Source of the DNA: an uncultured Gammaproteobacteria bacterium
GTDB lineage: Bacteria > Pseudomonadota > Gammaproteobacteria > JABCZS01
Direction: 5' to 3'
DNA: 64,000 nt
Assembly (NCBI GenBank): GCA_963848305.1
Contig: CAWKDC010000001.1
Span: forward strand, 1,504,001 to 1,568,000
Shown: positions 11,734 through 58,896 of the stretch, one piece after another
How the letters are laid out: each line of letters starts with the position of its first letter
Position numbering within the stretch: the stretch's first letter is position 1
Made by a program: the position numbers and the translations under genes
Notes under the pieces: model-generated
Told to the model about the DNA's origin: nothing
The model's input: only the letters and a program-made list of their open reading frames with translations
Databases searched by the model: none

Positions 11734-11763
11734 ACAGAACGCTTCCCAAAATTTAGGCTTATC

Positions 11764-21347: not shown

Positions 21348-21391
21348 CCCCGCTTTCGCGGGGGACAAACTTCACATGCTGCGCCCCGACA
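21348..21391. repeat. CCCCGCTTTCGCGGGG palindrome adjacent to a partial REP
   Basis: The same unit (CCCCGCTTTCGCGGGGG..AAACT) occurs at 37071-37094. Confidence 0.6.
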
Positions 21392-21399
21392 ATGCATTC

Positions 21400-22248: not shown

Positions 22249-22373
22249 AGAATGATATCCTTTCAAAGTTGAACGAGAATACCAAAAGTATAGAGGGCGA
22301 AATCGAATATGCAACCTTGCTGGAACACAATAAAGCAGGTATGATTACCGCTTATTCTCGGAGACTATAGCTC

Positions 22374-28281: not shown

Positions 28282-29049
28282 CTAAAATTGATACGCCACC
28301 GTGACCATCAATGCATTGGTGCTCACACGTTCTGGCTCGCCTTGGGCGGTAAATGTGATGTCTTTCGCAACATTTCCTCCGGACGTGCTGAATGAGCGCC
28401 AATCACCATTGTAAGCCGTGTATTGGTACTCAATCCCAGCGATCAGGTGCTTGGAGTATATATGCGACAGTCCTGCGCCGGCAGTCACCCCTAATTGATA
28501 GCGAGATTGTTGATCTTCATCTTCTGCCAGGGCATTCTGCGTCCCATACTCGAGAGCCTGGGTCTTGAGAGAGGTCTCGAAATGCCCCCAACGTGGGCCG
28601 ACCAGTGCATAAACCATGGTTTGTCCCAATGCGTAACCGGGTTTGAACAGGACAGCGAAGTCATTTTTCAATTGGGTTTTCATGCTACTAGAGAGTACGA
28701 TCTGGTGCGCATTGCTTGTTCCGCCTCCAATAGAAGCTCTATTGTCGAATGTCATGAGATTATAGTTCGCTGTGATGGCTGCGCCCAATACCAAGCCCGG
28801 GTTGAATTGATAAGCGTAGACAAGGCCGAGCATGCCCGCCACATTGCCTTGAAAAATGGTTTCTTTATTTGCGTAGTTGAGTGGGATAGTGTCTACTGTG
28901 CCTTGCCCCTCTTGGGACAAGGTTGCCTCTCCGGCGATACCCCCCAAGCCGGCCATGATGCTAAAGCCTGTGAAAGGGGCTGGCATGTGCTGTTCAGCAG
29001 ATGCCATTACCGCAATGGAGGAGAGCAGCAATATGGGCAAGTGTTTCAT
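28282..29049 (-). CDS. Outer membrane beta-barrel protein (OmpA-TM-like)
   Basis: Signal peptide, FTGF.I.AG.G, KPGY, AGAGL, GIEYQY, terminal YQF. Confidence 0.8.
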   Translation of the reverse strand: MKHLPILLLSSIAVMASAEQHMPAPFTGFSIMAGLGGIAGEATLSQEGQGTVDTIPLNYANKETIFQGNVAGMLGLVYAYQFNPGLVLGAAITANYNLMTFDNRASIGGGTSNAHQIVLSSSMKTQLKNDFAVLFKPGYALGQTMVYALVGPRWGHFETSLKTQALEYGTQNALAEDEDQQSRYQLGVTAGAGLSHIYSKHLIAGIEYQYTAYNGDWRSFSTSGGNVAKDITFTAQGEPERVSTNALMVTVAYQF

Positions 29050-39900: not shown

Positions 39901-40689
39901 GTGCAATACCTCATCATGGGCGTCCTCAACCTCACGCCCGATTCCTTTTTCGAGGGTAGCCGCGCATCCTCACTCGCGCATGCCAAGTCATCGATTGAAT
40001 CCATGATGGCTGACGGCGCAGACATCATTGATATCGGCGCTGAATCGACCCGCCCTGGGGCAACCCCTGTGTCGGTTGAAGCTGAGTGTGAACGTCTTTT
40101 CCCCATACTCGAATGGCTTCAACATCAATCTATTCCCTTTTCTATCGATACCCGCAAAACAGACGTTATGTCAGCCGTGCTACCTTTCAAGCCGGCCATG
40201 ATCAACGATGTCAATGCTTTTCAAGCGCCCGGCGCGCTAGAAGTCATAGCGGATCATCCTGTTGAAGTGTGTTTGATGCATGCGAAGGGAGAGCCGAAAA
40301 CCATGCAGGATAATCCTGAGTATACTGATGTGGTCGCAGAAGTGTATGCTTTTTTTCAAGACAGAATCACGGCTTGCGAAGCCGCGGGCATTGATAAAAG
40401 CCGCATTTGGTTGGACCCAGGGTTCGGTTTTGGAAAAACACTCACTCACAACTTAAAAATGTTACAATCGCTTCAAGCTTTTACGGGCTTAGGGTGTCGG
40501 CTGATGGTCGGTATGTCCCGCAAAGGCATGATTGGAGCTATCCTCAATAAGCCGGTTGATGAACGTCTTTATGGCAGTCTCACGGCACATACAGTGGCAT
40601 TGCTGCACGGGGCGAGCATGGTTCGCACCCATGATGTAGCAGCCACGAAGGATGCGGTTAACATTTTACAGGCAATATATGGCACATAA
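39901..40689 (+). CDS. folP: Dihydropteroate synthase
   Basis: [35 protein letters not shown]. Confidence 0.96.
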
Positions 40690-42041
40690 AACGCATTTTG
40701 GAACGGACGGTATCCGTGGCACGGTAGGCGAAGCGCCTATCACAGTTGATTTTGTGTTAAAGCTCGGCTGGGCAGTGGGGTCTGTGTTGGCCAAGCAGAG
40801 GTCCCGCGAAAGTGGTGATTGGGAAAGACACACGTATTTCTGGGTATATGTTGGAATCGGCTCTCGAAGCGGGTTTATCCGCCGCGGGGGTGGATGTCTG
40901 TTTGCTCGGCCCCATCCCAACACCTGCGATCGCGTATTTAACCCGCAAGTTGTCTGCACAAGCCGGTATTGTGGTCAGCGCATCACACAATCCCTATCCT
41001 GACAATGGCATCAAATTATTTTCCGCTGCTGGTGAAAAGATAGGCGATCAGATTGAACAAGACATTGATCGCCAATTGGCCTTGCCCATTCTCACATTAA
41101 GTGCGAAATCTTTGGGCAAAGCTTATCGCATCCAAGATGCACAAACGCAATATATCGATTTTTGTTTATCATTATTTAAAAACTTATCGCTGAAAGGCCT
41201 GAAGATTGTGGTGGATTGTGCGCATGGCGCCACTTACCACATTGCGCCAGAATTGTTCACGCGATTGGGCGCAGAAGTCGTGGCCATCGGTATTGCACCG
41301 AATGGGCGCAATATCAACGAATCATGCGGCTCAACACATCCGGCTTTGCTGCAGCAAACGGTCCTCGCTGAAAAGGCTGATTTAGGCATGGCTTTCGATG
41401 GTGATGGTGATCGTGTGATTTTTGTCGATCAACATGGTGTCGTTGTTGATGGTGATCAACTTGTGTATATGTTGGCAAAGCATGCCCATCAGCAGGGTTT
41501 GTTGAAGGGCGGCGTGGTCGGTACGCAAATGAGCAATTTGGGTTTAGAGTTGGCGTTAAAAGCGTTAGACATTCCATTTGTGCGCACCTGCGTCGGTGAT
41601 AAATACGTTCACGCGAAACTCGAGGAATTAGGTTGGATGTTGGGCGGGGAGTCTTCTGGTCACATCATCCAGATGCATTGTCTTTCCACGGGTGATGGTA
41701 TTTTGGCAGGGCTGGGCGTGCTGCAAGCGTTGTCCATGCAGCAAATCACTTTGCATGAAGCGGTGAAAGACGTGGCATTATTCCCACAAGTGATGATCAA
41801 TGTGCGCGTGTTATGTTCGCAAGATCCCATCTTGAATCCTGTCATTGCGCAAGCAGTGAATGACGTGGAAGCGCAGTTATCTGGTCGTGGCCGTGTTTTG
41901 TTGCGCCGATCAGGCACAGAGCCGGTGGTGCGCGTGATGGTTGAAGGCGAAGATGCAGCGCTGGTACAAGCCTTGGCGAATCACCTCGGGGAAATCGTTG
42001 AAACAGCATTGGTCAGTCATCAGCAGTTTAGTGCTTTTTAA
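40679..42041 (+). CDS. glmM: Phosphoglucosamine mutase; 1-nt frameshift near 40800
   Basis: HFGTDGIRG in one frame, then [32 protein letters not shown] in the next. Confidence 0.95.
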
Positions 42042-43149: not shown

Positions 43150-43234
43150 GCCGATGTGGTGAAATTGGCAGACACGCCATCTTGAGGGGGTGGTAGCGCA
43201 AGCTGTGCCGGTTCGAGTCCGGCCATCGGCACCA
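43150..43234 (+). tRNA. tRNA-Leu (GAG)
   Basis: GCCGATGTGGTGAAATTGGCAGACACGCCATCTTGAGGGGGTGG...GGTTCGAGTCCGGCCATCGGCACCA; long variable arm, GAG anticodon. Confidence 0.95.
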
Positions 43235-43257
43235 TTTTTTGTATGTGGGGTAGTCAT

Positions 43258-44586
43258 ATGTCTTTATTCAAAAAAATCATGATCGCTTTTCTCCTGTGTT
43301 CACTTCATGGCTTGGTCTACGCACAAGCGAACATCCCGATCGCATCTTGCAATGATTTGAAATCCATCAGCGCTAATATGAGCGGTTATTACTACCTCAC
43401 ACAGGATGTTTACTGTGGCACGGTTCACCCGATTGATGGCACTTTCACGGGCACATTGGATGGGCAAGGGTTTACCATTTTCAATCTGAATATTGTGAAT
43501 CAAGATGGTCGTAAAAGCGAAAACACCGGGATTTTTAGAACAATAGGGCAAAATGCACAAGTCACCAATATCCGCTTTTTCAATACCGTGTTGACTGCGC
43601 ACCGAGATACGAATCGTGGGGTCATTGCGGGTGTGGCAACGGGAAATGTTAACGTCACGGACGTGGTTTTCGAGAAACTTCAAATATTGCACCACGATGT
43701 GGCTCCGGATAAGAAGAAGGATTTAGGCGGGACAGGCAGCGTGGTGGGTCTTGCCACAGAAGGTACGATTGTGCTCAGACGCGTCATGGTGACAGGCCCA
43801 GCAGATGGCGTTTTGATCTCTCAAAACGCATTTGCAGGCGGGTTAGTGGGTATTGCTGAGGGCAATATTATCATTGAGCAGTCAAGTGTTTGGGCGTTGC
43901 AAGCAAAGGGAGGCAAAGAATGTTACAACCCTGCGAATGAATGTGGGTATGGTGGTTTGGTCGGCTTAATCGGTAAATTCCAGCCCCACAATTATGATCA
44001 TCCTGACAACCATGTACCCGCTCTTGAGAATGGCAACAGTGCGATCATTTCCCAATCTTCAGCATCAGGCGCTATTTTTTCAGACAAAAACATAGGTGGA
44101 TTCGTTGGCATGATCAAAGCAGATCGAGGTGTTTTAATTGAAAACAGCTACTCTGATATTGCTATTTTATGCAGAAGATATTATCCAATTGGAAATGAAT
44201 GTGAGGTTCCCAGTAAGTTTGCCGGTGGTGTGGTGGGGAAAGCTGTGGAAAGTGGTCATCAAAAAATGATCGCCCTGGGAAATGTGTATGTCATTGGGAG
44301 GAATGACAATGACATTAAGAATGAACCCTACAGAGAATGGGACACGCATTCTGCTGCGATAGTAGGGATAGATGAGTCCGCTTCAACACGAATTATCAAT
44401 TTGCCCAATACGCAAAGTTACTACGATAGGGATAGCACAAAAATGTCAATATCAGGTGACATGGTATCGAGAGGGTTGACATCTAATCAAATGCAATCAG
44501 GCTATACTGCCGATTTTTCGACCTGGGATCCTTCCGTTTGGACTTTTATCTATGGTTATTATCCTATTTTGAATGAAACACGGTAG
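43258..44586 (+). CDS. Secreted beta-helical protein with GLUG-like repeats
   Basis: Signal peptide; Y.LTQD, FTGTLDGQGFTIFNL, repeated (A/Y/I)GG(L/F/V)VG motifs, terminal W...W.....YYP.L. Confidence 0.75.
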   Translation: MSLFKKIMIAFLLCSLHGLVYAQANIPIASCNDLKSISANMSGYYYLTQDVYCGTVHPIDGTFTGTLDGQGFTIFNLNIVNQDGRKSENTGIFRTIGQNAQVTNIRFFNTVLTAHRDTNRGVIAGVATGNVNVTDVVFEKLQILHHDVAPDKKKDLGGTGSVVGLATEGTIVLRRVMVTGPADGVLISQNAFAGGLVGIAEGNIIIEQSSVWALQAKGGKECYNPANECGYGGLVGLIGKFQPHNYDHPDNHVPALENGNSAIISQSSASGAIFSDKNIGGFVGMIKADRGVLIENSYSDIAILCRRYYPIGNECEVPSKFAGGVVGKAVESGHQKMIALGNVYVIGRNDNDIKNEPYREWDTHSAAIVGIDESASTRIINLPNTQSYYDRDSTKMSISGDMVSRGLTSNQMQSGYTADFSTWDPSVWTFIYGYYPILNETR

Positions 44587-44673: not shown

Positions 44674-47600
44674 ATGGTGAATGTTTCATGGATTCAGAGA
44701 ACATTGGGTGCTGAATCTTGCTACAACATGGGTCAGCGATATGAAACAGGAGCTATTGTTTCGCGTGATATGGCAACTGCTCTAGAATGGTATAGAGCGT
44801 CAGCGGCACTGGGCCATGTGGATGCACAATTATGGCTTGCTGATCATTATAGAAAACAGAAAAACGTCGCTGAAGCAAGACAATATTATCGAAAAGCGAT
44901 AGTAAAAAAACCGAAATTAGCACACTATGGTCTTGCTTTATTGCTCGAAGATGAAGAAAAATATTCTGCTGCTTTAGAGGCTTTTGAACTCGCTGCATCG
45001 CTTGGATGTCATTTGTCTGAAAAAAAACTAATAGACTTTTCTCGTACAGGTGATCACAGGCCAAGCATTACTGATTTTGGGTGAGCTCGAAGAACATAAA
45101 GAGAACTGGGTCAAGGCAGAACAACATTACACAGAAGCAGCAAATTTAATGTCTGCCAAAACGGTACCGCTAGCAAGTATTGAAGCATTAAAACGATTAG
45201 GTGATTTCTATATTAAGGGTCGTGCCACTATCCTCCAAAACAAATCCGTGGCAATCAAATACTATCAACAAGCAGCGATGTTAGGATCGACAGAAGCGTT
45301 AAATGCATTATTGGTGCTGGCAGAGACGGATGGAGAGGCAAACTATGCATTGGCAGAATGTTATTGTGAAGGGTTGTCTGCCGCTAGTGAAAATCTAAAA
45401 AAGGAGAAACTTGAAAAAATACTTGAATACTTAAAGAAGTCTAATGCACAGAGATTTCTGCCAGCCAAAATGAAATTGGCTGAGATTACGAAAGATTATC
45501 TAAAGGACGAAGCACAAGCCTGTCACTATTATATTGAAGCTGCAGAACAAGGTGATAAGCAAGCACTAAGTCTATTGCCAGTGCTTCTTGATAAAATAAC
45601 AAACATGGATTTATACCTTCGGTTTGGCCGTTTGAAGGAAAAACTGAAGGATGTTCAGGGCGCCATGGTTTATTATCATAAAGTCCATAAAATCTACGGC
45701 GGAAATCATGGTCAGCAGCAATTGGCGCGGCTAGCCAATCAAGATGCGAAATATGCATTTGATATTGGAAAACTATTTGTACTGGACGACCCGATCAATG
45801 CGCTGAATTATTATATGATATCTGCGCGTGCTAAAAATGCGGAAGCGTTAGCTGCCGCTGAATCTCTGTCGGAAAAGGGTTCTGCAGAGATCCAATATAA
45901 ATTAGCAATGGAATATTTTTTGCCTGCTAAAAACATGCGAAAAGGCGTGAATTTTTTGTTGCATGCTTGGAATAAAGGGTATCAATTAGCGTTAACTGCG
46001 CTTAAATCAACAACATTTGATGTCGCGATGTATCAGTATCTTGCCGAGCAATTTGAAAAAGGGGGTATTGTTAAGCAGGATGAATCATTGGCATTGTATT
46101 TTTATATTAAATGCGCCGAGTTACAACCTATACCAGGTGGATTTAAAGTCGGTGAGTATTATCTGAACGGACGTGGTACAGCTGTGAATGTATCACTTGG
46201 CTGCGAATATTATTTGAGCGCTGCAAAATTAAATTATCAGCCAGCCATTAATGGATTACAGCAAATGGCTGCAGAACAAAACCCAGAAGCACTCTATGCC
46301 TACGGGAAGTATCTATTTCAGCATTTGAAAAAGGACGATGGATTACTTTATTATGCCGCAGCTGCGCAGTGTCATCATACGCAAGCAAAAGAGTTTATTG
46401 GGAATAATGCTCTGTTCACGCAGGATCAACATATAATACTTGCAACAGCGTTTGATAAAGGGGCTGATAATCCCAAAGTGGCAGCAAATGCTGGGGCAGC
46501 GAAAAGATATTACCGAGCCGCCAGTCACAAAGGCTCCGCGATGGCAAGTTTTCGCCTCGGTGAATATGCTGAAAACGCAACAGAATCATCTGAAGATCCC
46601 GTCGATCACTTTGTCACAGCATTACATCAAAAGCATCCGAAAGCAATAAGCCGATTAGAAATATATGGAAAGGCGAAAAATCAGAAGGCCTGTTTTGCGC
46701 TTTCAAAGGCATATGGGCAAAACAATCGCATTGGTATTCAATGGTTAATTTGCGCGGCAGATTTAGGGCACAGTGATGCCTTAAATCAATTGAAAAGCAT
46801 AAAAATTGATCACACAAGTGCTTTTATCGTTGCTGCGGCACTTGATACAGGCAAGACCCCCTTCTTTGATATCACACAAAATCTGTCGCTCGCATTTTGT
46901 TATTATAAAAGTGTGGTGGAGAATGATCCAAACTATCTAGATGCACTCTACCGAATAGTTCAATTTTATGAGCAAGGCCTAGGTGGTGTTGCTGTTGATC
47001 AAGTGTGTACAGCGAAAACGTACGTGTCAATCGCGCTGAAATCATCAGGTGAGCAAGCCACAGCAGCCTTAGAAAAGGCATCAAAGATCATTGAGGGGAT
47101 AAGCAATTGGGAATTGTGCTATCAATTAGGTATTGCATACGAACATCATCAACAGACGAGCAAGGCCATACATGCATGTAAAAAAGCTGCTGATAATGGA
47201 CATGCACTTGCCTTAAGTCGCCTCAACCGAATGGCGCAGCAAGATACCGAGTCAGCATATACCATCGGACTGTTGTATGAACAACAAGATATCAATCGCG
47301 CACTTGAATTTTATCAACCAGCATTGATGAGTAATCACGAGGCAACCGTTGAGAAAGTGAAAAAACTCGCGATTCATTTGCCTCAGGCCATGTACGTCAT
47401 TGCACGTGATTATTATGTGCAGCATAAACAGATGCAAGCTGCAATTGAATCATTGATGCGAGCTATTGCACATCAACAACCTGACGCGCTGCTCTTTCTA
47501 AAAGGATTGAACTTAACAGCAACACAATGCAATGCAATTGCCGCTACATATGAAAAAGGGGAAGGAATTCATGTGCAAAATTTTGCGTATGCCATAGCCT

Positions 47601-47917
47601 TTCGAGTGAAAGCGTTAAATAAGAGAAATCCAAATGAATTAATGCATCTCGCTGCTTTGTGTGAAAATAATCAGGAATCACCAAAAGAAAATAGGGCGCT
47701 TGCTTGGGAGTATTATTACAAGGCTGCAGAGTTAGGCTCAAATGATGCTTTTCTTGCATTGGAACGACTAGCGCGAACAGAATCAGAAGATAAAATACAA
47801 GCTTTAAATCAGCTGAAAGATAAAAAAAATCGTACTCCTACTGTGACTTTCAGCTGGAATTCGACATTGCCGAAACGAGCCGCTTTGCCTGCTTCATATA
47901 CTTCTAAAAGGAATTAG
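44674..47917 (+). CDS. Large Sel1-like (SLR/TPR) repeat protein, ~1080 aa if a 1-nt frameshift near 45060 is corrected
   Basis: Many Sel1 repeats (ALEWYRASAALGHVDA, AIKYYQQAAMLGSTEA, YYYKAAELGSNDA); ORFs 44674-45084 and 45050-47917 join as TGDH-QALLILG. Confidence 0.85.
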
Positions 47918-47920
47918 GAA

Positions 47921-50900
47921 ATGAGAAATCATACAGATCTGTATTCAGTATTGAATGTTCCAAGCACTGCCACATTTGACGAGATAAAAAAGGCTTATCG
48001 TAAGCTCGCCATGAAACAGCATACAGACAAAGGTGGCACTGATGATGCAATGGCAACGTTAAATAATGCATACGAAGTTTTAAGTGATGCTGCCCGCAAG
48101 AGCGCCTATGATGCGATGCAAGCGAGTGGTGCTGATGCCATTGATCGGATGTTTGAAGCGAAAGGCAAATGGGTGAAATTAGGCAGCACAGGTGAACGCT
48201 TTTCGGAAAGGTATAGGAAACGTTTCATCGAGTTGAAGGCATCATACCAGAATGCGATACCAGTAGCGTTCGATATGAAAAATGTTGTTCCAGTGCATCA
48301 GAGCCAATTGTTTGATATCAGCACGCGAGAAGGAGTAATCAAAGAAGGTGGATTGCTTGAATTTCTCAAGAAACATGCGTTGTCCCACAAAGACGCGATG
48401 CTCCCTTCCGGCGTATGGCGTACGCCTTTAACGCCACAGCATGCGATAGGAGTGCTGATTGATTTTGTCGAAGGTGATTATCGTGGGCTTCAACTGAAAC
48501 AACTGTATGATTATATGATGGCGGAAGCGGAGAACGTTGATCAGAGAGAGAGGCAGCTATATCTCGCGTTAGCGAACATATTTATATTTGCCTACCGAGA
48601 ATCATTGCCGAGCGAACTAGAGAAGTCAACGGCTCCATCAATGACGATGTCTGGACACAAGTCTTTGTGTGCTGTGACAAATTATATTAAAAAGACATCC
48701 AGCTTCAGTATGTCTTACTGTGCCTCATTGTTACAAAATGAATATTTTCGTGATTTTTATCAGTGGATACTCGTGAATGCTGTTTGGAGACAACCTGATC
48801 CAAAATTAATTCAAAACACATTGGCTGAATACAATAATTACGATCATACACGTGAAGAGCTGCAAAAGTTGTTGGACAGGCAAGAATCTTTACCAGAAGA
48901 TGCAGAAATGCGCAGCGGGTTTGAGCAATGGGTCACAACGTATAAATATCTCTATCTTTATGAAAAAAATGCCAAGGAACATCGAGAAAAACCAGTATAC
49001 CTTAAATCAGCAGAGCATCATATCGAATGTGCATATGATATTATGGATTGGTTTCCAGTGTTAGGTGAACGCGTTCCAAGAGAAATTCTCGCAAACCTGT
49101 TGCTTCAAGCAGGTGCTCAAATGCAAGTATCAGGCCAATTATCCACAAACCATCCGGAGAAAATGGCATGTGAAAAATTGAGCTATGAGTTTTATATGAA
49201 TGCGCTTATGTTTGCAAATCGTTCATCCTTAGACGTTGAGTTATATGTCCTCCAACACATTATTTCTAATATCAGTGATTATCGCTTTCAAAATGAATCC
49301 GCTAAAAAAGCGCTGCCAGAATTAGTAAAACTATATTCACATATATCAAATGTTTTTCCGCTCTATGAAGAACCGCAGGCACATATTCAATTATTTTCGA
49401 CCAGTGATAATGGTTTGCAAGGTACGATGCGTCGCCTGCTGTATGTATTGGTTGATGTGGTTCGATTCAATCGATCACATGCGGCAGATGAGGCGAAACC
49501 CTTTGATCATAAATATGTTGATGTCTTGTATTATGCATACGAAGCATGTTTGCGTAGATGGTATGAGTCCAATGAAGCGACTGAAAAAGATATTCGAACA
49601 ACTCTTATGGAAGAATTGTTAGCTGACAGAGGCTGGAAGTTTTCTGATTTGAATAAGCGTTTGCAATCACCTTATATCATGATCGATCGAACACCAGATG
49701 GCTGGCTATCTCCGACACGCACATTGGCATTGCCAACAAAAGAGAAACAAACAGCATTCGCTTCACTCGATGCCATTGAAATCGATGACAATACAGGCAA
49801 CTTTCACTTCGTGATGCGCGATATTACCGGCTGGCAAGATCCACAACAGCGCGTGGTCAGTTTTTCAGATATACAAGAAATATTCTCGCACAATGTCACA
49901 GGGGCACTGCTGAGTCTTGATGAAGTCAATGAATACATGCGATTCCATCCATTTAATAAAATCAGAGTATCTCCAACATCCTTGTTCGAGACGGATTTTA
50001 TCAATACGTTTTTGCTAACCGATTATTTCCTAAAATTCATGACGGTGGGTCATGAGGTCAATGGCCAGTATCCCTACAACATGCGACCAGTCAGAGAGAT
50101 GATCTCGCATTTTCCTACTCATTTAAAATTGATTATTGAACAATTTCAAGACGCTCAGAAGGATGAATCTGCTCATCGTTTTTGGATCGAGGCATGTCCG
50201 GTGAATGCATTTTTGCCTGTTCAGGAGCGTGGCAATGACGAGACAACTCGAATCATGGTTCCTGAAATTCATATGATTGTTAAAAAACATCTTTTACGTC
50301 GAAGCGCTAGCGGTGCTTTAGTGGATGATCAAAATGAGCCTGATGAAGGCTGGCACTTGTATCGCTTTGATAAGCTACCAGGGCAGAATAAACTCTGTGA
50401 GTTAGCAACAGATAAATCCGTGATCGTTTTTACAAAAAAACTTACTGAGGTTTATTTTATTCCTAAAGGCGGGCAATCTGAAAAAATGCATTTACCAAAT
50501 CATATAATGCATCTTTTTGTTAAATTATCAGCAATGACTATTGATGATAGTGGTGCAATTTCAAGGACTGACGAAAATTCAAGTTATCTATATTATGTTG
50601 TCAAAGTATTGTGCGCTGAGTATAAAAAACCAACCCTTTTTTCACCAGAATATGTGTTCGCACAGGAGTTTACACTCCACTATGATGAATTTGCAAACTG
50701 TTTGCCTGAGTTTGCTCGCCTTCGCGAGCTGGCTCGTTTGACAGTGTACGTTCAATTATTAAATCGCGTGAAATCATCAAACGAGCTTCAAAAGACAAAG
50801 CTGGAATCTATCCTTAATGATGTCGAACATTGGAAAAAACGTGAAGCCGTAGTCAAAAAAGCCATTGCAGATATTAAGCAGCAATACGATAATCTTTATA

Positions 50901-52408
50901 ACCAAACGTTTCAAGACATGCAGACTAATATTTCTGAGAAGTTTAGTCACTTTAATCGAGACTTTTCTCGGACAGCCTTAGAACGAAAATATCTTGCTAT
51001 CCTTAATGGTATTAAACAGGACATTGATCCGCTTGATTTTAATGAAAGATCCCGGCAAGTCGTCGATGCGGTTGACAAGATGTACAATGAAAATCGAAGC
51101 CGTATTATCAATCAGCATGGCATGGCTCAATGGAATTACAATGCGACTAACATTCGAAACCAGTGCGATGCAGAAAAAGGCAAAATCGCACGCGAGTTAA
51201 CAAGAATGAAACGCGAATCTGTTCATGCAAGTCTGTTGAGTCAATATGATTCGATCTTGGCTTTGCCGAGAAGCACGATCTCGACATATGTCACTGAATT
51301 TATGAATGGAAACCATCAGAATCTGCTGCGATCTCTAGTGAATGAAAGTTACAATAAATCATTGACAGCATTGGTCAGCTCTTTCGGTTCCTTTGATATC
51401 GGGCACTCCACTGTTGAAAATGCATTAACTTCCCCATCCGCTAGAAATAGCATTACTAAAATCATTGTTGATAAAAATACAGCAGCGCTGCGAACACAAT
51501 GTGATAGCGAAATTGCCCGTGCAAACAATATTATCTCTGAAGAGAAAGCTGAGATACGAGCAGCGATCGCTAAATTTCAGCGCGTGATCAATAAATTGGG
51601 TGAGCTAGGGATCGGTCGCAAAGACGCTTTGGATCAGGCCGACATTTCTCCCGAGAAATGCACTTGGGTGCCTGCCAGTGTTGATCGACAAGAAAACCGC
51701 ACTCGTCTTGTATATGGTGGAGTTCATGTGCAGCCCAGTATTCATGTGGTGACAAGTATGAACTCGCAAACACAATCAGCGGTAAATCAGTGTTATTCCC
51801 CGTCGAATCATTTTCGTTATTCGTCACAAGATTTACCTCGTGCGACTCAGAATGGATGCAGTAATAATTTCCAACAACGCATGGCCTCTCAGCCGTCTGC
51901 TCCTCCGCCACCCCCATCTTCCGGTGGCGGATATGGTGGTGGTTCATCGAGTGGTGGAGGGCGACGTCCGCCTTCACCGCCGCCACCAGGGAATGGCTAC
52001 TCGAATAGTATGAGTGATGCGTTGCGTCATAAAGTTGTCCTCAGTTTCCAAGAGGCGGGTATGATGCGACAGAGCGAGAAATTGACGCAGCAGGCTATAA
52101 ACGGAAGCGAAAGAATTATTGCTGGAAGAGATCTCAATAATCCCCATCTTGTCAATACATTAACTGCAGGTGGGAAAAATATCAATGATTGGGGTAAGTA
52201 TACTACACCTTCAGTCACACTTTCGACTGGTCAAAGTGTTCAGATACATTACTATAAGCATGAACCTACCGGTAAAATTTCAAATATTGAGTATAAAGTT
52301 AAAGGTGTGGTAGATTATGCAGGCAAACCCAGTGCTGCTGAACGCACGGGCGCTGATCCTTACCGAGGCACTGGAAAGGCAAAATATGCATCCGAACTTT
52401 TTAAATAG
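47921..52408 (+). CDS. 1495-aa protein: N-terminal J-domain (HTD), unknown core, Pro/Gly linker, putative C-terminal toxin domain
   Basis: DLYSVLNV....[20 protein letters not shown]...LNNAYEVLSD...KSAYD; linker PSAPPPPPSSGGGYGGGSSSGGGRRPPSPPPPG; CT motifs DWGKYTT, IHYYKHEPTG, EYKVK. Confidence 0.8.
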   Translation: MRNHTDLYSVLNVPSTATFDEIKKAYRKLAMKQHTDKGGTDDAMATLNNAYEVLSDAARKSAYDAMQASGADAIDRMFEAKGKWVKLGSTGERFSERYRKRFIELKASYQNAIPVAFDMKNVVPVHQSQLFDISTREGVIKEGGLLEFLKKHALSHKDAMLPSGVWRTPLTPQHAIGVLIDFVEGDYRGLQLKQLYDYMMAEAENVDQRERQLYLALANIFIFAYRESLPSELEKSTAPSMTMSGHKSLCAVTNYIKKTSSFSMSYCASLLQNEYFRDFYQWILVNAVWRQPDPKLIQNTLAEYNNYDHTREELQKLLDRQESLPEDAEMRSGFEQWVTTYKYLYLYEKNAKEHREKPVYLKSAEHHIECAYDIMDWFPVLGERVPREILANLLLQAGAQMQVSGQLSTNHPEKMACEKLSYEFYMNALMFANRSSLDVELYVLQHIISNISDYRFQNESAKKALPELVKLYSHISNVFPLYEEPQAHIQLFSTSDNGLQGTMRRLLYVLVDVVRFNRSHAADEAKPFDHKYVDVLYYAYEACLRRWYESNEATEKDIRTTLMEELLADRGWKFSDLNKRLQSPYIMIDRTPDGWLSPTRTLALPTKEKQTAFASLDAIEIDDNTGNFHFVMRDITGWQDPQQRVVSFSDIQEIFSHNVTGALLSLDEVNEYMRFHPFNKIRVSPTSLFETDFINTFLLTDYFLKFMTVGHEVNGQYPYNMRPVREMISHFPTHLKLIIEQFQDAQKDESAHRFWIEACPVNAFLPVQERGNDETTRIMVPEIHMIVKKHLLRRSASGALVDDQNEPDEGWHLYRFDKLPGQNKLCELATDKSVIVFTKKLTEVYFIPKGGQSEKMHLPNHIMHLFVKLSAMTIDDSGAISRTDENSSYLYYVVKVLCAEYKKPTLFSPEYVFAQEFTLHYDEFANCLPEFARLRELARLTVYVQLLNRVKSSNELQKTKLESILNDVEHWKKREAVVKKAIADIKQQYDNLYNQTFQDMQTNISEKFSHFNRDFSRTALERKYLAILNGIKQDIDPLDFNERSRQVVDAVDKMYNENRSRIINQHGMAQWNYNATNIRNQCDAEKGKIARELTRMKRESVHASLLSQYDSILALPRSTISTYVTEFMNGNHQNLLRSLVNESYNKSLTALVSSFGSFDIGHSTVENALTSPSARNSITKIIVDKNTAALRTQCDSEIARANNIISEEKAEIRAAIAKFQRVINKLGELGIGRKDALDQADISPEKCTWVPASVDRQENRTRLVYGGVHVQPSIHVVTSMNSQTQSAVNQCYSPSNHFRYSSQDLPRATQNGCSNNFQQRMASQPSAPPPPPSSGGGYGGGSSSGGGRRPPSPPPPGNGYSNSMSDALRHKVVLSFQEAGMMRQSEKLTQQAINGSERIIAGRDLNNPHLVNTLTAGGKNINDWGKYTTPSVTLSTGQSVQIHYYKHEPTGKISNIEYKVKGVVDYAGKPSAAERTGADPYRGTGKAKYASELFK

Positions 52409-52862
52409 ATAGGAACATTATGAAACTGATATGCAATCTAAAGGATAGTACATGGGTAAACTATGGTGATGCATATTATCCATTGGCAATTAGTTTTAGT
52501 TTGAAAAGTGGTATTGAAGTGTATATACAATCTGAGGATAATAATACCCCAATTTGGAAAAAAATAACTGGTTTTGAAGTCATTGATCAAATCATTCCCA
52601 GCTCATGGGTTAGGAAAGTAGATGCAGATCCCGCATATGGGATAATCACATTTCTCCCGGCAAAATGGGTCTATCGTGGTTTTTTTGAAGAATTATATGA
52701 TGATGTCCCCTCTGCTGTAGCATTATTCAATGAAGAAGCGATAAAAATATATAAGGAATTGAAAGCGCCAGGGTATGAACAGGATTAATTTCGTTATTGG
52801 AATTGCAAAAGTAATTAGATTGATATGAATGTAGGGGCGCATATTTGTGCCTGTCCGCGCCA
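52303..52862 (+). repeat. 560-bp cassette copy 1 (toxin 3' tip + immunity-like gene + downstream REP)
   Basis: Aligns without gaps to 53403-53962; near-identical first 111 bp and last ~145 bp. Confidence 0.9.
52420..52788 (+). CDS. Putative cognate immunity protein
   Basis: 122 aa, starts 11 nt after the toxin-like stop with AGGA RBS; FEVID..IPS.W and GFFE.L.D motifs. Confidence 0.7.
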   Translation: MKLICNLKDSTWVNYGDAYYPLAISFSLKSGIEVYIQSEDNNTPIWKKITGFEVIDQIIPSSWVRKVDADPAYGIITFLPAKWVYRGFFEELYDDVPSAVALFNEEAIKIYKELKAPGYEQD

Positions 52863-52934
52863 TGGTGCGGCAATAAATCGATTTCGGATCGCGTTGTGGA
52901 TCAAAAGAGAGAAAGTCGACAATGAGCACGGAAA

Positions 52935-53294: not shown

Positions 53295-53402
53295 GGCCTC
53301 AGCCTCGTCAGAGGCAGCAGATGTGGAGCCCCGCATGTAGCGCGCCTGATAGGGCGTGCAAATGTGGGGTTCCCATGAGGCCGCTGTAGGCGGCGGAATG
53401 GG

Positions 53403-53962
53403 AGGTGTGGTAGATTATGCAGGCAAACCCAGTGCTGCTGAACGCACGGGCGCTGATCCTTACCGGGGTACTGGAAAAGCGAAATATGCATCCGAACTTT
53501 TTAAATAGATAGGTACGATATGAAGCTCATTTGTAAAATAAAGGACAATCTATGGGTTAATTATGAAGAGGAATATTATCCTCTTGCAATTAGCTTTTCG
53601 TTAAAAAGAGGGATCGATATATGCATACAAGTTGGCGAAGATGGAATGCCGGGTTGGAGTAGTCTAGTTGGTTTTGAAGTTATCGATCAGACCATTCCTA
53701 GCTGTTGGGTGAGAGATGTACACGAAGATCCAACGTATGGAATCATCACGTATCTGCCTGCGAAATGGGCCTACCATGGATTTTTTGAGGACTTAAGCAA
53801 TGATATACCTGCTGCCGTAGCATTATTCAATGAAGAAGCGATAAAAATATATAAGGAATTGAAAGCGCCAGGGTATGAACAGGATTAGTTTCGTTATTGG
53901 AATTGCAAAAGTAATTAGATTGATATGAATGTAGGGGTGCATATTTGCGCCTGTCTGCGCCA
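53403..53962 (+). repeat. 560-bp cassette copy 2
   Basis: Exactly 1100 bp downstream of copy 1; starts with the last 34 codons of the toxin-like gene. Confidence 0.9.
53520..53888 (+). CDS. Paralogous putative immunity protein
   Basis: 122 aa, 86/122 identical to 52420-52788 by manual alignment; last 24 aa identical. Confidence 0.7.
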   Translation: MKLICKIKDNLWVNYEEEYYPLAISFSLKRGIDICIQVGEDGMPGWSSLVGFEVIDQTIPSCWVRDVHEDPTYGIITYLPAKWAYHGFFEDLSNDIPAAVALFNEEAIKIYKELKAPGYEQD

Positions 53963-53988
53963 GAGAACAAATTTCTTAGCTAACCAAA

Positions 53989-54013: not shown

Positions 54014-54031
54014 TTCTCCTTAATAAAGAGG

Positions 54032-54616
54032 TTATTGTTTCTTGTAGCAATAACCTATCTTTTTACCATTGCCGGACCAGCACCCAGCATTCAAATCCAT
54101 CAGAGCGCATAGACCAGCTGCGTTGATGGTGTATTTTGAGTTAGTAATGCCGTTGTTGCACTGGAAAGTTTGATCATAACTAAAGTTGTTGCCATCATCA
54201 GAAGCATTACATTCTGCTATACCCCCACCATTAGGGCAATGGACGATTTCTGACGTAGTCGCCGTAACATTGGGATCACTGCTTTTGTCACAAAGAACAT
54301 TCTGTCCTCCATGTTTTATGCAGTCTAAATAATTGTCGCTGTTGACGCCACAGATTGTGCTTTGACCCCCATTGGGGTTAGATAATTGTACGGCATAATT
54401 ACATGTTGAATCACCCTGAGGGACCTCGGCGCATTGAGAGAGTGGCAGTTTGGCCGAGCAGTTAGGTGCGGTATCGCTGAGGGCAGGGAATGTGATGAGA
54501 GACAGCAAGAGAGGGGTTGCACAGCGAAGTGTCACTGATAAAATTGATGTATTGATGAAACTTTTCCTTAAGATGGATTGATACGAATAGTTTAGATGTT
54601 TAAGCATGAAAGTCAA
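54032..54616 (-). CDS. Small secreted cysteine-rich protein (start uncertain)
   Basis: Signal-like PLLLSLITFPALS-D, then 12 Cys in ~147 residues. Confidence 0.65.
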   Translation of the reverse strand: MTFMLKHLNYSYQSILRKSFINTSILSVTLRCATPLLLSLITFPALSDTAPNCSAKLPLSQCAEVPQGDSTCNYAVQLSNPNGGQSTICGVNSDNYLDCIKHGGQNVLCDKSSDPNVTATTSEIVHCPNGGGIAECNASDDGNNFSYDQTFQCNNGITNSKYTINAAGLCALMDLNAGCWSGNGKKIGYCYKKQ

Positions 54617-54797: not shown

Positions 54798-55865
54798 ATG
54801 AAAGCAAACAAACATCTTATTTGGATCATTCTCACGCTGCTGTTGGGCTGCTCCAAATCCGATCAAGTATCAACAGCCCCGCGCTTGGTCAAAACCGTTG
54901 TGGTGGGAGAGGCTGGGGTGTCGGCGGAACGTTCCTTTCCGGGGCGTGTGATTGCAGGTCAACGGGCGGACATGTCTTTTCAAGTCTCTGGAACATTGAG
55001 TGAATTGCCGGTTAAAGAAGGACAGCGCGTCACGCAGGGGCAACTTCTTGCAAAGCTCAATTCACGTGATTTTGAAAATCGTTATAATGCAGCGAAATCC
55101 ACGCGTGACATCACCGAAATCAATTATGAACGTGGAAAAAAATTAGTCGTGAACGGCACGGTTGCACAAGTCACTTTTGATGATCTGCGCAATAAATTTG
55201 AAGTCGCAAAATCAGAAGAAGCCATTGCACAAAAAGCACTGGAAGACACACAAATGTTGGCACCTTTCACCGGCATGATTGCGCGCGTCTATGTTGATAA
55301 TTTTCAAGAAGTGCAAGCAAAAGAAAAAATCCTCACCGTGCAAGATGTTCAAGATGTGGATATCCTGATCGATGTCCCCGAGCGAGATATTATTAATCGA
55401 CAGAATATGAATAATAACCGTGTTGAGGATCAAACATTGCCCAATGGTTATGTGGTGTTTGATGCCATTCCTGGTCAACAGTTTCAGGTCACTGTAAAGG
55501 AATACGCAACTGAAGCAGACCCGACCACACAAACCTATCGCGTGCGACTGAGCATGAAGGCTCCTGAAAACATCAATATTTTACCCGGCATGACAGCGAC
55601 ATTGAAAATGAAACAGCCTGCACAAATGATCACTGAGACATCTTTGCCAGCAAATGCTGTCGCTGTCGACCCTCAAGGACATTTTTATGTGTGGGTTGTG
55701 AAAGAAGACATGACGGTGACCAAAGTGCCTGTTCAAGTCGGCGATATGGTCGGGAATGATATTCGCATCACGCAAGGCATTTCGCAAGGTCAACGTGTGG
55801 TTGTTGCGGGCGTGCCGTATTTAACAGAAGGCATGAAGATCCGTTTATTCACCAACCAATATTAG
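54798..55865 (+). CDS. RND efflux membrane fusion protein (lipoprotein)
   Basis: Lipobox LLGC, MSFQVSG.L..LPVKEGQRV, LAPFTG, ADPTTQTY, ILPGMTA. Confidence 0.93.
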   Translation: MKANKHLIWIILTLLLGCSKSDQVSTAPRLVKTVVVGEAGVSAERSFPGRVIAGQRADMSFQVSGTLSELPVKEGQRVTQGQLLAKLNSRDFENRYNAAKSTRDITEINYERGKKLVVNGTVAQVTFDDLRNKFEVAKSEEAIAQKALEDTQMLAPFTGMIARVYVDNFQEVQAKEKILTVQDVQDVDILIDVPERDIINRQNMNNNRVEDQTLPNGYVVFDAIPGQQFQVTVKEYATEADPTTQTYRVRLSMKAPENINILPGMTATLKMKQPAQMITETSLPANAVAVDPQGHFYVWVVKEDMTVTKVPVQVGDMVGNDIRITQGISQGQRVVVAGVPYLTEGMKIRLFTNQY

Positions 55866-55872
55866 GATTGAT

Positions 55873-58800
55873 ATGAACCTCGCCACCAAAGCCATTCAAT
55901 ATAAATTATTCACGCTTGTCTTAACGCTATTGGTGATTATTGGCGGCGGATTTGCCTATGAAAAATTGGGACGATTGGAAGATCCAGAATTCACTGTGAA
56001 ATCCGCATTAGTCGTCACACAATATCCGGGTGCCAGCGCGACTGAGGTCGAAAAAGAAGTGACTGAAGTGCTTGAAACGGAAATTCAAGAATTAGGACAG
56101 ATCGATTATTTGGAATCACAAACCAGTACAGGATTGTCCAGTATCACTGTCACTATTTTAGATAAATATGATAAACACACGTTACCACAAGTGTGGGATG
56201 AATTGCGCAGAAAAGTGAATGATGCGCAAACCAAATTACCTCCAGGCGTGGGGCGTTCTGCAGTGTATGATGATTATGGCGATGTGTATGGCGTATTATT
56301 GGCCGTGACAGGTTCTGAATATTCAGCAGAAGAATTAGAAGATTTCGCAGATTTTTTACGGCGCGAATTACTGACGGTGCGAGATGTGGCTAAAATTAAT
56401 ATGTGGGGTGTGCAACAGCGTCAGGTCTTTGTCGATATTGCACAATCAAAAATGGCTCAACTGGGAATCAGTCTAGAGTCCATTTATGCCACACTGGAAA
56501 AACAAAATTTGGTGCAAGGGGCAGGGCATGTCAATGTGGACAACGAATTCATTCGGATCAGCCCAACAGGCGAAATCAGTTCGGTTGAGGCCATTGGCAA
56601 TTTACTGATAGGTAGCCATGATCAACAGCTGATTTATTTGAAAGACATCGCTACCATCAGCCGCGGTTTAATCACTCCTCCCTCGGAGCATTTGCGATAT
56701 AAAGGTAAAAATGGGATTGCCTTGGGCGTATCGACGGTCTCAGGTGGCAACGTCGTATTGATGGGCGAAGCCATCCAGCATAAATTAAAATCATTGGAAG
56801 CGCAAACACCACTCGGCATGCAAATTGATCCGATATACTTTCAAGCCGATGGTGTGAAAAAAGCCGTAAATGGATTTGTGGTCAATTTAATTGAAGCCCT
56901 TGCGATTGTGATCATCGTGTTGATGATATTCATGGGCAAGCGTAGTGGGTTGTTGATTGGCGGCGTTTTATTAATCACTGTGGCTGCGACGGTTTGCATG
57001 ATGCAGTTTTACGCGATTGATTTACAGCGCATTTCATTGGGTGCACTGATCATTGCACTTGGGATGCTTGTGGATAATGCGATTGTGGTGGTCGAAGGCA
57101 TGCAGGTCAAAATGCAACAAGGTATGCCAGCTGTTAAAGCTGCGGAAGAAACGGTGGGGCAAACCATGTGGCCCTTATTGGGTGCGACTGCTATTGCCGT
57201 GTTGGCATTTGCGGCGATTGGTCTATCACAAGATTCCACTGGAGAATATTTGAGATCACTTTATCAGGTGATGTTGATTTCACTCGGGTTAAGCTGGTTG
57301 ATTGCAATCACTGTCACGCCTGTATTAGGCGTTATGTTTTTAAAAGTTACCAATCAATCGCAAGACCCGTATGCAAATCCCATTTTTAAACGATACAAAG
57401 CATTTCTATCAACCTGTATTGATCATCCCATGCCCACATTATCGATAGTCTTAGGATTACTATTATGTTCCGTGGTCGCTTTCAAGCAATTAGAACAGAG
57501 CTTTTTCCCCGATTCTACCACCCCTCAATTATTGATTCATTATTGGTTGCCGCAAGGGACAGATATTCGAAAAACAAGCAGCGATCAAAAAGACATCGAA
57601 GCGTTCATCGCAAAACAACCAGGTGTGAAATCGGTCAGTACATTTGTGGGGGGCGGTGCTCCGCGATACACGTTGGTCTACAGTCCTGAAAAAGTGAACA
57701 ATGCCTACGGATTATTCATGATTGATGTAGATGATTATCGCATCATCAATGATCTCACAAAAACCATCATGGATTATATTCACCAACATTTTATCGATGC
57801 CAATCCTCGTGCTGAGAAAATTAAACTGGGACCAAGTGGTGGTTATCCATTAGAGTTTCGTATTCAAGGAACAGATGCAAATGTGTTGCGGGCGTTGGGA
57901 GATCAAGTCAAAAATATTTTGATTGAGGATGGTGGTGCGAAAGGGATCCGTGATAATTGGCGTGAACGTGTTAAATTAATTCGTCCAGAGATTAAAACAA
58001 TTCAAGCAGAACGTGCGGGTTTAACCCGCTCTGATATTGCGCGGGCAATTGAAACTGTATTTATTGGGACGCAAGTGGGTATTTACCGAGAAGGCGATAA
58101 ATTATTACCGATTGTTTCCAGGGGTATTGCATCTGAACGCGAGCTTGTCGACAATTTATATAGTATTCAAGTCTGGAGTGATTTGGCGCAAAAAAGTGTG
58201 CCTCTCAGTCAATTGGTGTCCGAGTTCACGACAACGTACGACGACTCAATTGTACAACGGCGTAACAAATTAAGAACCTTAACCGTGCAAGCAGAGCCTG
58301 TCGCGGGCAATGTCAGTGTTTTATTTGAAAGGGTGCGTGATAAGATAGAAGCGATTCCTTTACCAGTCGGATATGCGTTTGAATGGGGCGGTGAATATGA
58401 AGATTCAACCAAGGCACAAAAAAGTTTAGCGGCGAAAATTCCGCCCACGTTAATCTTGATGATCTTGATCACGATTGGATTATTCAATGCATTAAAACAA
58501 CCCATGATCATTTGGATCACTGTTCCATTGTCTATCATTGGTGTGGCATTTGGATTATTATTATTCGGCGAACCCTTTGGCTTTATGGCTTTATTAGGAT
58601 TTTTGAGTTTATCGGGTATGTTGATTAAAAATGCGATAGTCCTATTGGATGAAATGGATCTAGAAGTGAAATCGGGCAAAGGATTGGACGATGCCATTTT
58701 AGCTGCTTCTGTTTCCCGTATGCGCCCGGTTCTCATGGCAGCTGTGACCACGGTATTGGGCATGATTCCCCTTTTAACCGACGTCTTCTTCAAAGGCATG

Positions 58801-58896
58801 GCCGTGACGATCATGGCGGGGCTAACGTTTGCCACGGCTTTAACCTTGATTGTCGTGCCTGTTCTATACCGATTGGCATTTGCGCGATTGAAATGA
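55873..58896 (+). CDS. RND efflux permease (AcrB/AcrD/AcrF family)
   Basis: RLEDPEFT, ALGMLVDNAIVV, GMLIKNAIVL, SRMRPVLM. Confidence 0.95.
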   Translation: MNLATKAIQYKLFTLVLTLLVIIGGGFAYEKLGRLEDPEFTVKSALVVTQYPGASATEVEKEVTEVLETEIQELGQIDYLESQTSTGLSSITVTILDKYDKHTLPQVWDELRRKVNDAQTKLPPGVGRSAVYDDYGDVYGVLLAVTGSEYSAEELEDFADFLRRELLTVRDVAKINMWGVQQRQVFVDIAQSKMAQLGISLESIYATLEKQNLVQGAGHVNVDNEFIRISPTGEISSVEAIGNLLIGSHDQQLIYLKDIATISRGLITPPSEHLRYKGKNGIALGVSTVSGGNVVLMGEAIQHKLKSLEAQTPLGMQIDPIYFQADGVKKAVNGFVVNLIEALAIVIIVLMIFMGKRSGLLIGGVLLITVAATVCMMQFYAIDLQRISLGALIIALGMLVDNAIVVVEGMQVKMQQGMPAVKAAEETVGQTMWPLLGATAIAVLAFAAIGLSQDSTGEYLRSLYQVMLISLGLSWLIAITVTPVLGVMFLKVTNQSQDPYANPIFKRYKAFLSTCIDHPMPTLSIVLGLLLCSVVAFKQLEQSFFPDSTTPQLLIHYWLPQGTDIRKTSSDQKDIEAFIAKQPGVKSVSTFVGGGAPRYTLVYSPEKVNNAYGLFMIDVDDYRIINDLTKTIMDYIHQHFIDANPRAEKIKLGPSGGYPLEFRIQGTDANVLRALGDQVKNILIEDGGAKGIRDNWRERVKLIRPEIKTIQAERAGLTRSDIARAIETVFIGTQVGIYREGDKLLPIVSRGIASERELVDNLYSIQVWSDLAQKSVPLSQLVSEFTTTYDDSIVQRRNKLRTLTVQAEPVAGNVSVLFERVRDKIEAIPLPVGYAFEWGGEYEDSTKAQKSLAAKIPPTLILMILITIGLFNALKQPMIIWITVPLSIIGVAFGLLLFGEPFGFMALLGFLSLSGMLIKNAIVLLDEMDLEVKSGKGLDDAILAASVSRMRPVLMAAVTTVLGMIPLLTDVFFKGMAVTIMAGLTFATALTLIVVPVLYRLAFARLK

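Follow-up and report, generated by a model that had tools for sequence, protein, structure and literature searches.

The window analysed here, a stretch of 64,000 nucleotides from an uncultured Gammaproteobacteria bacterium (contig CAWKDC010000001.1, positions 1,504,001 to 1,568,000), encodes a 1495-residue protein, P0001 (47921..52408, + strand, from the list of open reading frames (ORFs) and its translation), whose last ~135 residues are probably an exchangeable polymorphic-toxin tip, the small gene that follows (52420-52788) being its cognate immunity gene. This degree of confidence covers the core claim only; the sub-claims of ribonuclease (RNase) activity and of a role for the J domain of P0001 stand outside it. 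Polymorphic toxins rank among the chief weapons with which bacteria compete, and new enzymes are found among them. Their marks at this locus are a module at the extreme C-terminus of otherwise unrelated carriers, an immunity gene downstream of it, variable carrier ends and orphan cassettes. What sets the locus apart more is its J-domain carrier family, together with the immunity cassette.

From its N-terminus, P0001 consists of a J domain, about 1200 residues without an assigned fold, a YGG block, a low-complexity linker and the tip. The boundary between carrier and toxin is the Pro/Gly/Ser linker (51887..52000, +; Gly, Pro and Ser account for 44 of residues 1301-1400 in the translation), and homologous J-domain carriers have G/S/N/P-rich linkers at the equivalent place. 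After the Pro/Gly linker SQPSAPPPPPSSGGGYGGGSSSGGGRRPPSPPPPGNGY the translation gives LTQQAINGSERIIAGRDLNNPHLVNTLTAGGKNINDWGKYTTPSVTLSTGQSVQIHYYKHEPTGKISNIEYKVKG. A sequence-only reading of this DNA had singled out the segment as resembling the nuclease toxin tips of CdiA and Rhs proteins; every letter of its motif string matches the translation of 47921-52408 and of 51935-52405, and its coordinates are correct, with the module at 52001-52405 and the stop codon at 52406-52408. The module is the last 135 residues of P0001 and contains no Cys; we number it 1-135, and adding 1360 gives the residue number in the whole protein. Its core domain of ~105 residues (module residues 1-106, 52001..52318, +) is delimited by 334 relatives, a family hidden Markov model (HMM), conservation and the AlphaFold2 model, the family HMM matching 52004-52318 at E=8e-41. 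The C-terminal tail of ~29 residues (52319..52405, +) is of low model confidence, and tails comparable to it, with a ...P.Y-like motif, are present in some aligned relatives.

A phmmer search with the 135-residue module, run exhaustively against 1.84 billion cluster representatives, returned 334 proteins at E<=1e-3, 120 of them at E<=1e-10 (best E=2.5e-34), a family match that, as a sequence comparison, is far above the chance level. Among the 150 of the 334 matches that were listed, 143 cover the end of the domain, and the matched and conserved part corresponds to module residues ~2-104. The family signature is the DW.K /.H(F/Y)Y / TG / (D/E)(F/Y)K.K pattern that the sequence-only reading had picked out. 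In an alignment of 56 sequences, N47, L54, W64, K66 and H83 are invariant and T55, G58, T69, G77, Y85 and K99 are conserved in >=90%; the 160 aligned domain rows from the 150 listed matches bring out the same positions together with D63, Q81, N87, T90 and D97. Expressed in whole-protein numbers, the conserved core residues are N1407, W1424, K1426, T1429, H1443, Y1445, E1457 and K1459, where E1457 (module residue 97) is D in most relatives. Ten of the 160 rows show the changes K>D, H>Q and Y>L; these are apparently internal repeats of P0007, a 2135-residue relative with a PKD domain that matches only module residues ~63-106, in 13 separate stretches. The sequence of P0007 raises the possibility of a kinship between the beta-hairpin half of the toxin and a non-catalytic repeat.

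The module has no match in Pfam, NCBIfam, PHROGs or PADLOC. No Pfam model, including those of EndoU_bacteria, colicin D/E5 and the Ntox families, matches the module in any of the 56 aligned members at E<=1, and the window module alone matches no BECR family in Pfam at E<=10, the families in question being EndoU, colicin D/E5, RelE and Ntox7/19/21/35/36/41/47-50. Sequence and profile searches of the PDB gave nothing at E<=1, only chance-level matches at E>=1.6. None of the 39 relatives found by a profile search (0/39) has a precomputed Pfam domain, and their names are only 'hypothetical' or 'filamentous hemagglutinin'. No longer protein bearing a single module was found by a word-indexed search, which by the tool's own account is weak evidence. 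The nearest named Atlas clusters are MafB, Ntox35 and EndoU_bacteria at 0.77-0.79, leads of a kind that, according to the tool, are often due to chance. By these comparisons, the toxin family is large and widespread, and is without a name and without a Pfam or PDB representative; the Levy-lab toxin discovery preprint or the Pandoomain PT-TG paper could contain the same family under a different name.

The module is found almost invariably at the end of the protein that carries it. Among the 143 relatives whose match covers the domain end, the number of residues beyond it is at most 5 in 79, 6-20 in 39, 21-60 in 22 and more than 60 in 3, giving 140/143 with at most 60. The carriers themselves are diverse. 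According to Pfam, the 23 long relatives comprise five proteins with RHS repeats, three with two-partner secretion (TPS), haemagglutinin or DUF637 domains, three with ankyrin repeats, three with an N-terminal DnaJ domain, one with a PKD domain, one with a second nuclease domain after the module, and seven with no family. Of 53 mid-length relatives, 15 have a Pfam family and 38 have none; the families are PT-TG (3), DUF637 (3), PT-VENN (2) and RHS (2), with PT-HINT, TPS plus ESPR, eCIS_core, Ank, DUF6861 and a weak ART match in one protein each. Giant ankyrin-repeat carriers of the tip occur in locus L009 and as P0049, P0060, P0076 and P0138.

A pattern scan of one genome per species, based on a 10-sequence alignment, yielded 26 related loci; the window's own genome is outside this set, and the closest locus is 65% identical. 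They include Burkholderia, Paraburkholderia, Pararobbsia, Haemophilus, Rodentibacter, Halotalea and a Desulfobulbus metagenome-assembled genome (MAG), as well as MAGs labelled Coxiellaceae, Ca. Berkiella, Holosporales, Patescibacteria, Nitrospirae and Oligoflexus, and the named records among them are almost all Pseudomonadota. Their carriers have RHS repeats and DUF6531 in L006, Fil_haemagg in L002, L005 and L023, and PT-VENN in L018, L022 and L023. The view of the sequence-only reading that the C-terminal tip is common to contact-dependent inhibition (CDI) and Rhs carriers is thus borne out by relatives with RHS, TPS/filamentous haemagglutinin, DUF637 and PT-VENN domains. That reading had also named, as what would speak against it, a module never seen at the C-terminus of other toxin carriers, and since the module does stand at the C-terminus of RHS, TPS and pre-toxin carriers this objection falls away. 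Its proposed resemblance to CdiA and Rhs proteins stands for the tip family and not for the window protein, which is neither a CdiA nor an Rhs protein.

The cognate immunity gene, P0002 (122 residues, 52420..52788, +), is identified by downstream homologues in 26/26 loci, by a model of the toxin-immunity complex and by its AlphaFold2 model. Its start codon lies 11 nt past the toxin stop codon. With a six-frame HMM search, a P0002 homologue was found directly 3' of the toxin module in all 26 loci; phmmer with P0002 had linked 20 loci at E<=3e-5 and a profile 25, the six-frame search adding L004. The downstream ORFs encode 111-135 residues (213 in L012), and either overlap the toxin gene by 4 nt or follow it after a gap of less than ~30 nt. 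An alignment of 28 partner proteins shows a start M(K/I)(V/I/L) with no hydrophobic leader, and the sequences of P0002 and of its paralogue P0004, described below, likewise have no signal peptide. Neither of the two matches anything in Pfam, NCBIfam, PHROGs or PADLOC. Tandem arrangements also occur elsewhere: in L009, a MAG locus (6010-9927) located after an ankyrin giant, the order is toxin, immunity gene, orphan tip, immunity gene, frameshifted tip and frameshifted immunity gene, and in L001 a truncated tip is followed by two immunity genes.

A duplicated tail-immunity cassette is also present in the window, the region 52303-52865 recurring at 53403-53965. The second copy starts with an orphan toxin tail remnant, the last ~34 codons with no core (53403..53508, +, inside ORF 53356-53508; 102/106 nt identical to 52303-52408), whose tail peptide is identical to that of the toxin from VVDYAG to ELFK. 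Upstream of the cassette junction identity is 23%, and the six-frame HMM search found no second toxin core. A second, divergent immunity paralogue of 122 residues, P0004 (53520..53888, +; BLASTP E=2e-66, family HMM E=3e-37), follows, with 70% protein identity to P0002. DNA identity between the two immunity genes is 63-74% in codons 1-92 and rises to 89% in codons 93-123, and the differing codons comprise 33 synonymous and 36 non-synonymous ones. The 3' flanks (copy 1, 52789..52865, +; copy 2, 53889..53965, +) are identical at 72/77 nt, or 93.5%, and beyond them identity drops to ~21%. Our reading of this alignment is an orphan immunity cassette that is kept alignable by conserved flanks, and its divergent immunity gene most likely serves as protection from competitors that have a variant toxin allele. 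Between the cassettes is an acidic ORF of 119 residues, P0003 (52935..53294, +), with no Pfam, NCBIfam, PHROGs or PADLOC match and no homologue among the ORFs that follow the toxin gene in the 26 loci; it is possibly an orphan immunity gene of an unrelated toxin type.

The AlphaFold2 model of the toxin module, built from the 56-row alignment, has a mean predicted local distance difference test score (pLDDT) of 84.8 and a predicted template modelling score (pTM) of 0.72, with residues 11-100 at 95-98 and the last ~30 residues below 70, falling from 69 to 44. Its elements are helices 4-18, 30-34 and 48-54 and strands 37-41, 64-68, 79-87 and 92-101. P0002 is modelled with a pLDDT of 93.5 and a pTM of 0.85 as seven strands and two C-terminal helices. 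Foldseek against the PDB gave no match at E<=1e-3 for either model; the best for the toxin had E=0.086 and a template modelling (TM) score of ~0.2, and the immunity protein gave only weak partial SH3/Tudor-like matches. Among viral models (BFVD), the sole match at E<=1e-3 is A0A1V0SD22, a 'putative hemagglutinin' of Indivirus, an amoeba giant virus (E=2.7e-4), a hint that the tip occurs in giant-virus genomes too.

When toxin residues 1-108 were modelled together with P0002, the complex scored 0.90 in 3/3 runs, against 0.00 for the best of three controls. The 0.90 mark is reached by 116/157 solved complexes and 2/215 mismatched pairs, counts that are only rough here because custom alignments were used. 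The runs have >=92% of contacts in common, and partner pLDDT is >=91. Because neither single model matches the PDB, it seems unlikely that the score derives from a memorised solved complex. The interface involves toxin residues 35, 37-41, 43-47, 60, 62, 66, 68, 70-71, 79, 81, 83, 88, 99, 101 and 104-108, the modelled partner covering the strands that bear the invariant N47, K66 and H83 and also K99. The complex model thus supports predicted binding with occlusion of a putative active site.

This model suggests how the pair might work. The residues K66, H83/Y85 and K99 have i/i+2 spacing on neighbouring strands and would therefore face one side of the sheet; in P0001 these are K1426, H1443/Y1445 and K1459, and together with N1407 and T1429 they may form the active site on one sheet face. 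The immunity protein would neutralise the toxin by covering this conserved face. Since no export signal is present in the immunity protein, the toxin's target presumably lies in the cytoplasm. Nucleic-acid cleavage would be the most likely chemistry. Small metal-independent RNase toxins of the barnase, RelE and colicin D/E5 types typically present a set of Lys, His, Tyr and Thr on the face of a sheet. Given such a set and a cytoplasmic immunity protein, metal-independent RNase activity is by analogy our first choice, held tentatively and at somewhat less than even chances; a DNase, or a quite different activity or new chemistry, is possible as an alternative.

The sequence-only reading had gone further and proposed a BECR-fold RNase or tRNase. 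In the toxin model, helices at the N-terminus precede four strands, and strands 2-4 carry the conserved K, H, Y, K and T. This is a loose fit to the BECR fold of Zhang et al. 2012 (PMC3482391), in which a helical segment at the N-terminus leads into a meander of four strands; the Atlas leads mentioned above, low and often due to chance, point in the same direction. Helix 48-54, however, lies between strands 1 and 2, so that the sheet is not a plain meander, the Pfam BECR models match 0/56 members, and Foldseek found no toxin structure in the PDB at E<=1e-3. The last result is one that the sequence-only reading itself had said would count against it. Without a match in Pfam, NCBIfam, PDB sequences or the Foldseek search of the PDB, the BECR assignment is unsupported, and we regard it as unlikely.

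The carrier of the tip is itself unusual. Residues 6-64 of P0001 form an N-terminal J (DnaJ) domain (47936..48112, +; Pfam PF00226, E=1.6e-15, 57.4 bits against a cut-off of 27.8), and NCBIfam gives J-domain matches only for this protein. HPD is the motif by which J proteins stimulate Hsp70, and in P0001 this position reads HTD (KQHTDKGG). The conserved carrier region that follows (48113..51724, +), recognised from near full-length homologues, ends CTWVPASV...LVYGGVHV, with VYGGV at 51710-51724, and is assigned to no family in Pfam, NCBIfam, PADLOC or Atlas. With residues 1-1320 as the query, six proteins were found: a truncated copy of 1157 residues that is 100% identical, four homologues 44%, 37%, 28% and 28% identical over ~99% of the query, and P0161, of 1867 residues, which has both a DnaJ and a FYVE domain. 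The lipid that FYVE fingers bind is eukaryotic, and the combination in P0161 suggests that some members of the carrier family are host-directed.

Adding the three J-domain proteins that the module search had yielded to the results of the carrier search gives a set of nine carriers (the homologues being P0157 at 44%, P0158 at 37%, and P0159, P0160, P0101, P0092 and P0103 at 25-28% identity). All nine align over most of their length and have the J domain. HPD is present in 7/9, the window protein having HTD and its closest homologue HSD, and 7/9 have a [VI]YGG[VI] block 176-232 residues before the C-terminus, followed by a low-complexity linker. The toxin module HMM is matched in 4/9 carriers, the other five showing no match even at E<=10. 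An AHH nuclease (Pfam, 3.9e-16) forms the end of one of these five, and another has the FYVE finger; the ends of the four other than the AHH protein have no Pfam match at E<=1. Homologous carriers with different ends, here recognised by sequence comparison, are the hallmark of a polymorphic toxin carrier.

We found no description of J-domain polymorphic toxin carriers in the open-access full-text literature, and neither 'DnaJ' nor 'J domain' occurs in the first 300,000 of the 357,715 characters of Zhang et al. 2012 (PMC3482391). Speculatively, the J domain would recruit Hsp70, which either keeps the large protein unfolded or hands it over for export or entry. A wider proposal, which we put forward as speculative and rather improbable, is that proteins led by a J domain form an undescribed class of polymorphic toxin carriers in uncultured, probably host-associated Gammaproteobacteria, in which the J domain hijacks the Hsp70 of the producer, of the target bacterium or of a eukaryotic host to unfold, deliver or activate the tip, the tip and immunity folds having no solved relative and possibly a new toxic chemistry.

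The same observations bear on whether the toxin is aimed at bacteria at all. P0001 could be a host-directed effector of an intracellular, Legionellales-like bacterium, its J domain engaging eukaryotic Hsp70 and the toxin acting in the host, with an immunity protein that only guards the producer before export. Relatives of the toxin-immunity pair in MAGs of Coxiellaceae, Ca. Berkiella and Holosporales, giant ankyrin-repeat proteins with the same tip, the FYVE finger of one carrier homologue, a best viral structural match in an amoeba giant virus, and neighbouring Sel1 proteins are all consistent with such a role. However, arrays of immunity genes, orphan tips and a second immunity copy that has diverged mark inter-bacterial conflict, the same tip is found on CdiA and Rhs carriers, which target bacteria, and there is no type IV secretion gene in the window. 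Host-directed toxins of intracellular bacteria usually have no immunity genes, according to Zhang et al. 2012 (PMC3482391). We find a host-directed effector doubtful.

A delivered toxin with its immunity protein is also a better account than an intracellular module that is never exported, a toxin-antitoxin or abortive-infection system with the J-domain protein as sensor and the tip as effector. P0001 has no signal peptide and no transmembrane segment (its highest 19-residue Kyte-Doolittle mean is 0.98), nor any pre-toxin or secretion-linked domain, the ORFs of the window include no secretion apparatus recognised by Pfam, and Rhs elements are reported in PMC7043789 to act as toxin-antitoxin modules. 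Against this, PADLOC defence models match none of the 8 locus proteins, and the exchange of tips on a conserved carrier, as well as the presence of this tip on CdiA, Rhs and extracellular contractile injection system (eCIS) carriers, fits delivered toxins, which makes the non-exported module quite unlikely. That the module is a binding or structural end-domain followed by an unrelated small protein would agree with the lack of an enzymatic family match and is highly improbable in view of the strict pairing with one partner family in 26/26 loci, the invariant polar residues, the pre-toxin domains directly upstream in relatives and the orphan arrays.

Several points weigh against a toxin-immunity pair as we propose it, or against parts of that proposal. 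A trafficking or pre-toxin domain, or a linked secretion system, is a further mark of polymorphic toxins that is missing from the window: in Pfam searches, P0001 has no pre-toxin or recognised trafficking domain, only DnaJ, and no ORF of the 64-kb window belongs to a secretion system, PAAR, VgrG, TPS, CdiB, dot/icm or type IV gene, so that export of the toxin is assumed. The module shows no similarity to any enzyme in Pfam, NCBIfam, PHROGs, PADLOC, the PDB or the Foldseek search of the PDB, and the presence of D63 and D/E97 in the conserved set makes a metal-dependent mechanism possible. The complex score is the confidence of a model and not a measurement. The differences between the immunity copies, which we considered might be clustered at the modelled interface, are not so clustered (12 of the 36 fall in 33 interface positions, against 24 in 89 others). 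Finally, with HTD in place of HPD the J domain may be weakened.

The toxin locus lies in a low-GC segment (~43500 to ~53000), in which GC falls from ~0.50-0.52 to ~0.38-0.43 and which begins right after a tRNA-Leu(GAG) gene (43150..43234, +; ARAGORN) located after tpiA-secG (SecG by Pfam). To judge from relatives, the source, an uncultured gammaproteobacterium, may be Legionellales-like. The first gene past the tRNA (43243-44586) encodes a 447-residue protein with a signal peptide and glycine-rich GG(L/F)VG repeats, weakly matching the N-terminal region of M26 IgA1 proteases (E=0.007) and one function-unassigned PHROG. It is followed by a Sel1/TPR protein of 136 residues (44674..45084, +; Pfam Sel1 and TPR), which overlaps the start of a gene for a 955-residue Sel1/TPR-like helical-repeat protein (45050..47917, +; Pfam Sel1, E=1e-16). 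The latter gene ends 3 nt before the toxin start codon, and its product may be an adaptor or chaperone. On the other side, a function-unassigned ORF of 194 residues (54032-54616, -) lies between the toxin locus and an RND efflux operon (54798-58896), with a terminator-like hairpin at 54029-54056.

Elsewhere in the window, glmM is split over two frames (40652-42041), ORF 40652-41002 corresponding to positions 2-38 of PGM_PMM_I and ORF 40812-42041 to the rest from position 44; the frameshift near 40800 is a sequencing indel or the mark of a pseudogene. An NlpA/MetQ lipoprotein gene is split as well (2860-3297 matching profile positions 1-109, and 3279-3647 positions 117-236), and is the second broken housekeeping-type gene beside glmM. 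Two tandem 304-residue paralogues of an outer-membrane beta-barrel protein (OMP_b-brl) are encoded at 20339-22314 (-), and a third, of 255 residues, at 28282-29049.

With at least 334 clusters at 50% identity, the unnamed toxin family occurs on carriers that include CdiA, Rhs and eCIS proteins; the confident models of toxin and immunity protein, and their modelled interface, lend the pair to direct tests. Such tips are also borne by a J-domain carrier with no known export route, which bears on toxin delivery by host-associated Gammaproteobacteria and on a possible recruitment of chaperones in delivery.

Among known systems, the N-terminal 60 residues of P0001 resemble DnaJ/Hsp40 co-chaperones in matching the J-domain model at 57 bits. 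Unlike DnaJ, P0001 has no Gly/Phe region, zinc finger or DnaJ C-terminal domain, reads HTD for HPD, and continues with ~1400 unrelated residues ending in the toxin. A true DnaJ with all three of the missing regions is encoded in the same window (11719-12885). Substrates of the Dot/Icm (type IVB) system come to mind because of the C-terminal tail, which we considered as a type IV secretion signal specific to J-domain and ankyrin carriers. This idea is weakened, and we did not adopt it, since tails like that of the window toxin, with ...P.Y, are also found on short and other non-J carriers, and residues 104-108 contact the immunity protein in the model.

The BECR RNase toxins (colicin D/E5, EndoU, Ntox; PMC3482391) resemble the tip in being small alpha+beta domains with His, Lys and Thr/Tyr conserved on a sheet and in having a cytoplasmic immunity protein, and differ from it in that no sequence, profile or Foldseek match connects the two. 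The Rickettsiales CRCT of Verhoeve et al. 2022 (PMC9111745) is an unannotated C-terminal toxin of ~145 residues with no domain prediction and with a small antidote gene, CRCA; it is found in proteins of CDI-like and Rhs-like type, in giant proteins from amoeba symbionts and, as small genes, on its own. The likeness to our pair is one of description only, an unannotated C-terminal toxin with a small antidote on diverse carriers; the module motif does not occur as text in 12 of the 15 supplementary files of PMC9111745, the sequences themselves not having been compared. According to a later paper of the same group (PMC11077975), rCRCT/A-1 is mainly found in Actinomycetia and Cyanobacteria, unlike the window tip, whose 26 loci are almost all in Pseudomonadota among the named records.

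Rhs/YD-repeat toxins and CdiA-CT/CdiI are further points of comparison. The window protein differs from Rhs toxins in having no RHS repeats, PAAR or VgrG in Pfam searches, and its carrier is demarcated by a CxWVPASV...[VI]YGG[VI] block and a Gly/Pro/Ser linker; like them, it combines a conserved carrier with exchangeable tips past a demarcation block, and in relatives the tip itself follows RHS repeats and DUF6531. It differs from CdiA in having no TPS domain, haemagglutinin repeats or DUF637/VENN, there is no CdiB in the window, and the toxin model matches no solved CdiA-CT structure. As in CdiA-CT/CdiI of two-partner secretion systems, however, a small C-terminal toxin is accompanied by an adjacent downstream immunity gene and by orphan or extra immunity cassettes, and the same toxin family occurs on relatives with TPS, haemagglutinin, DUF637 and PT-VENN domains.

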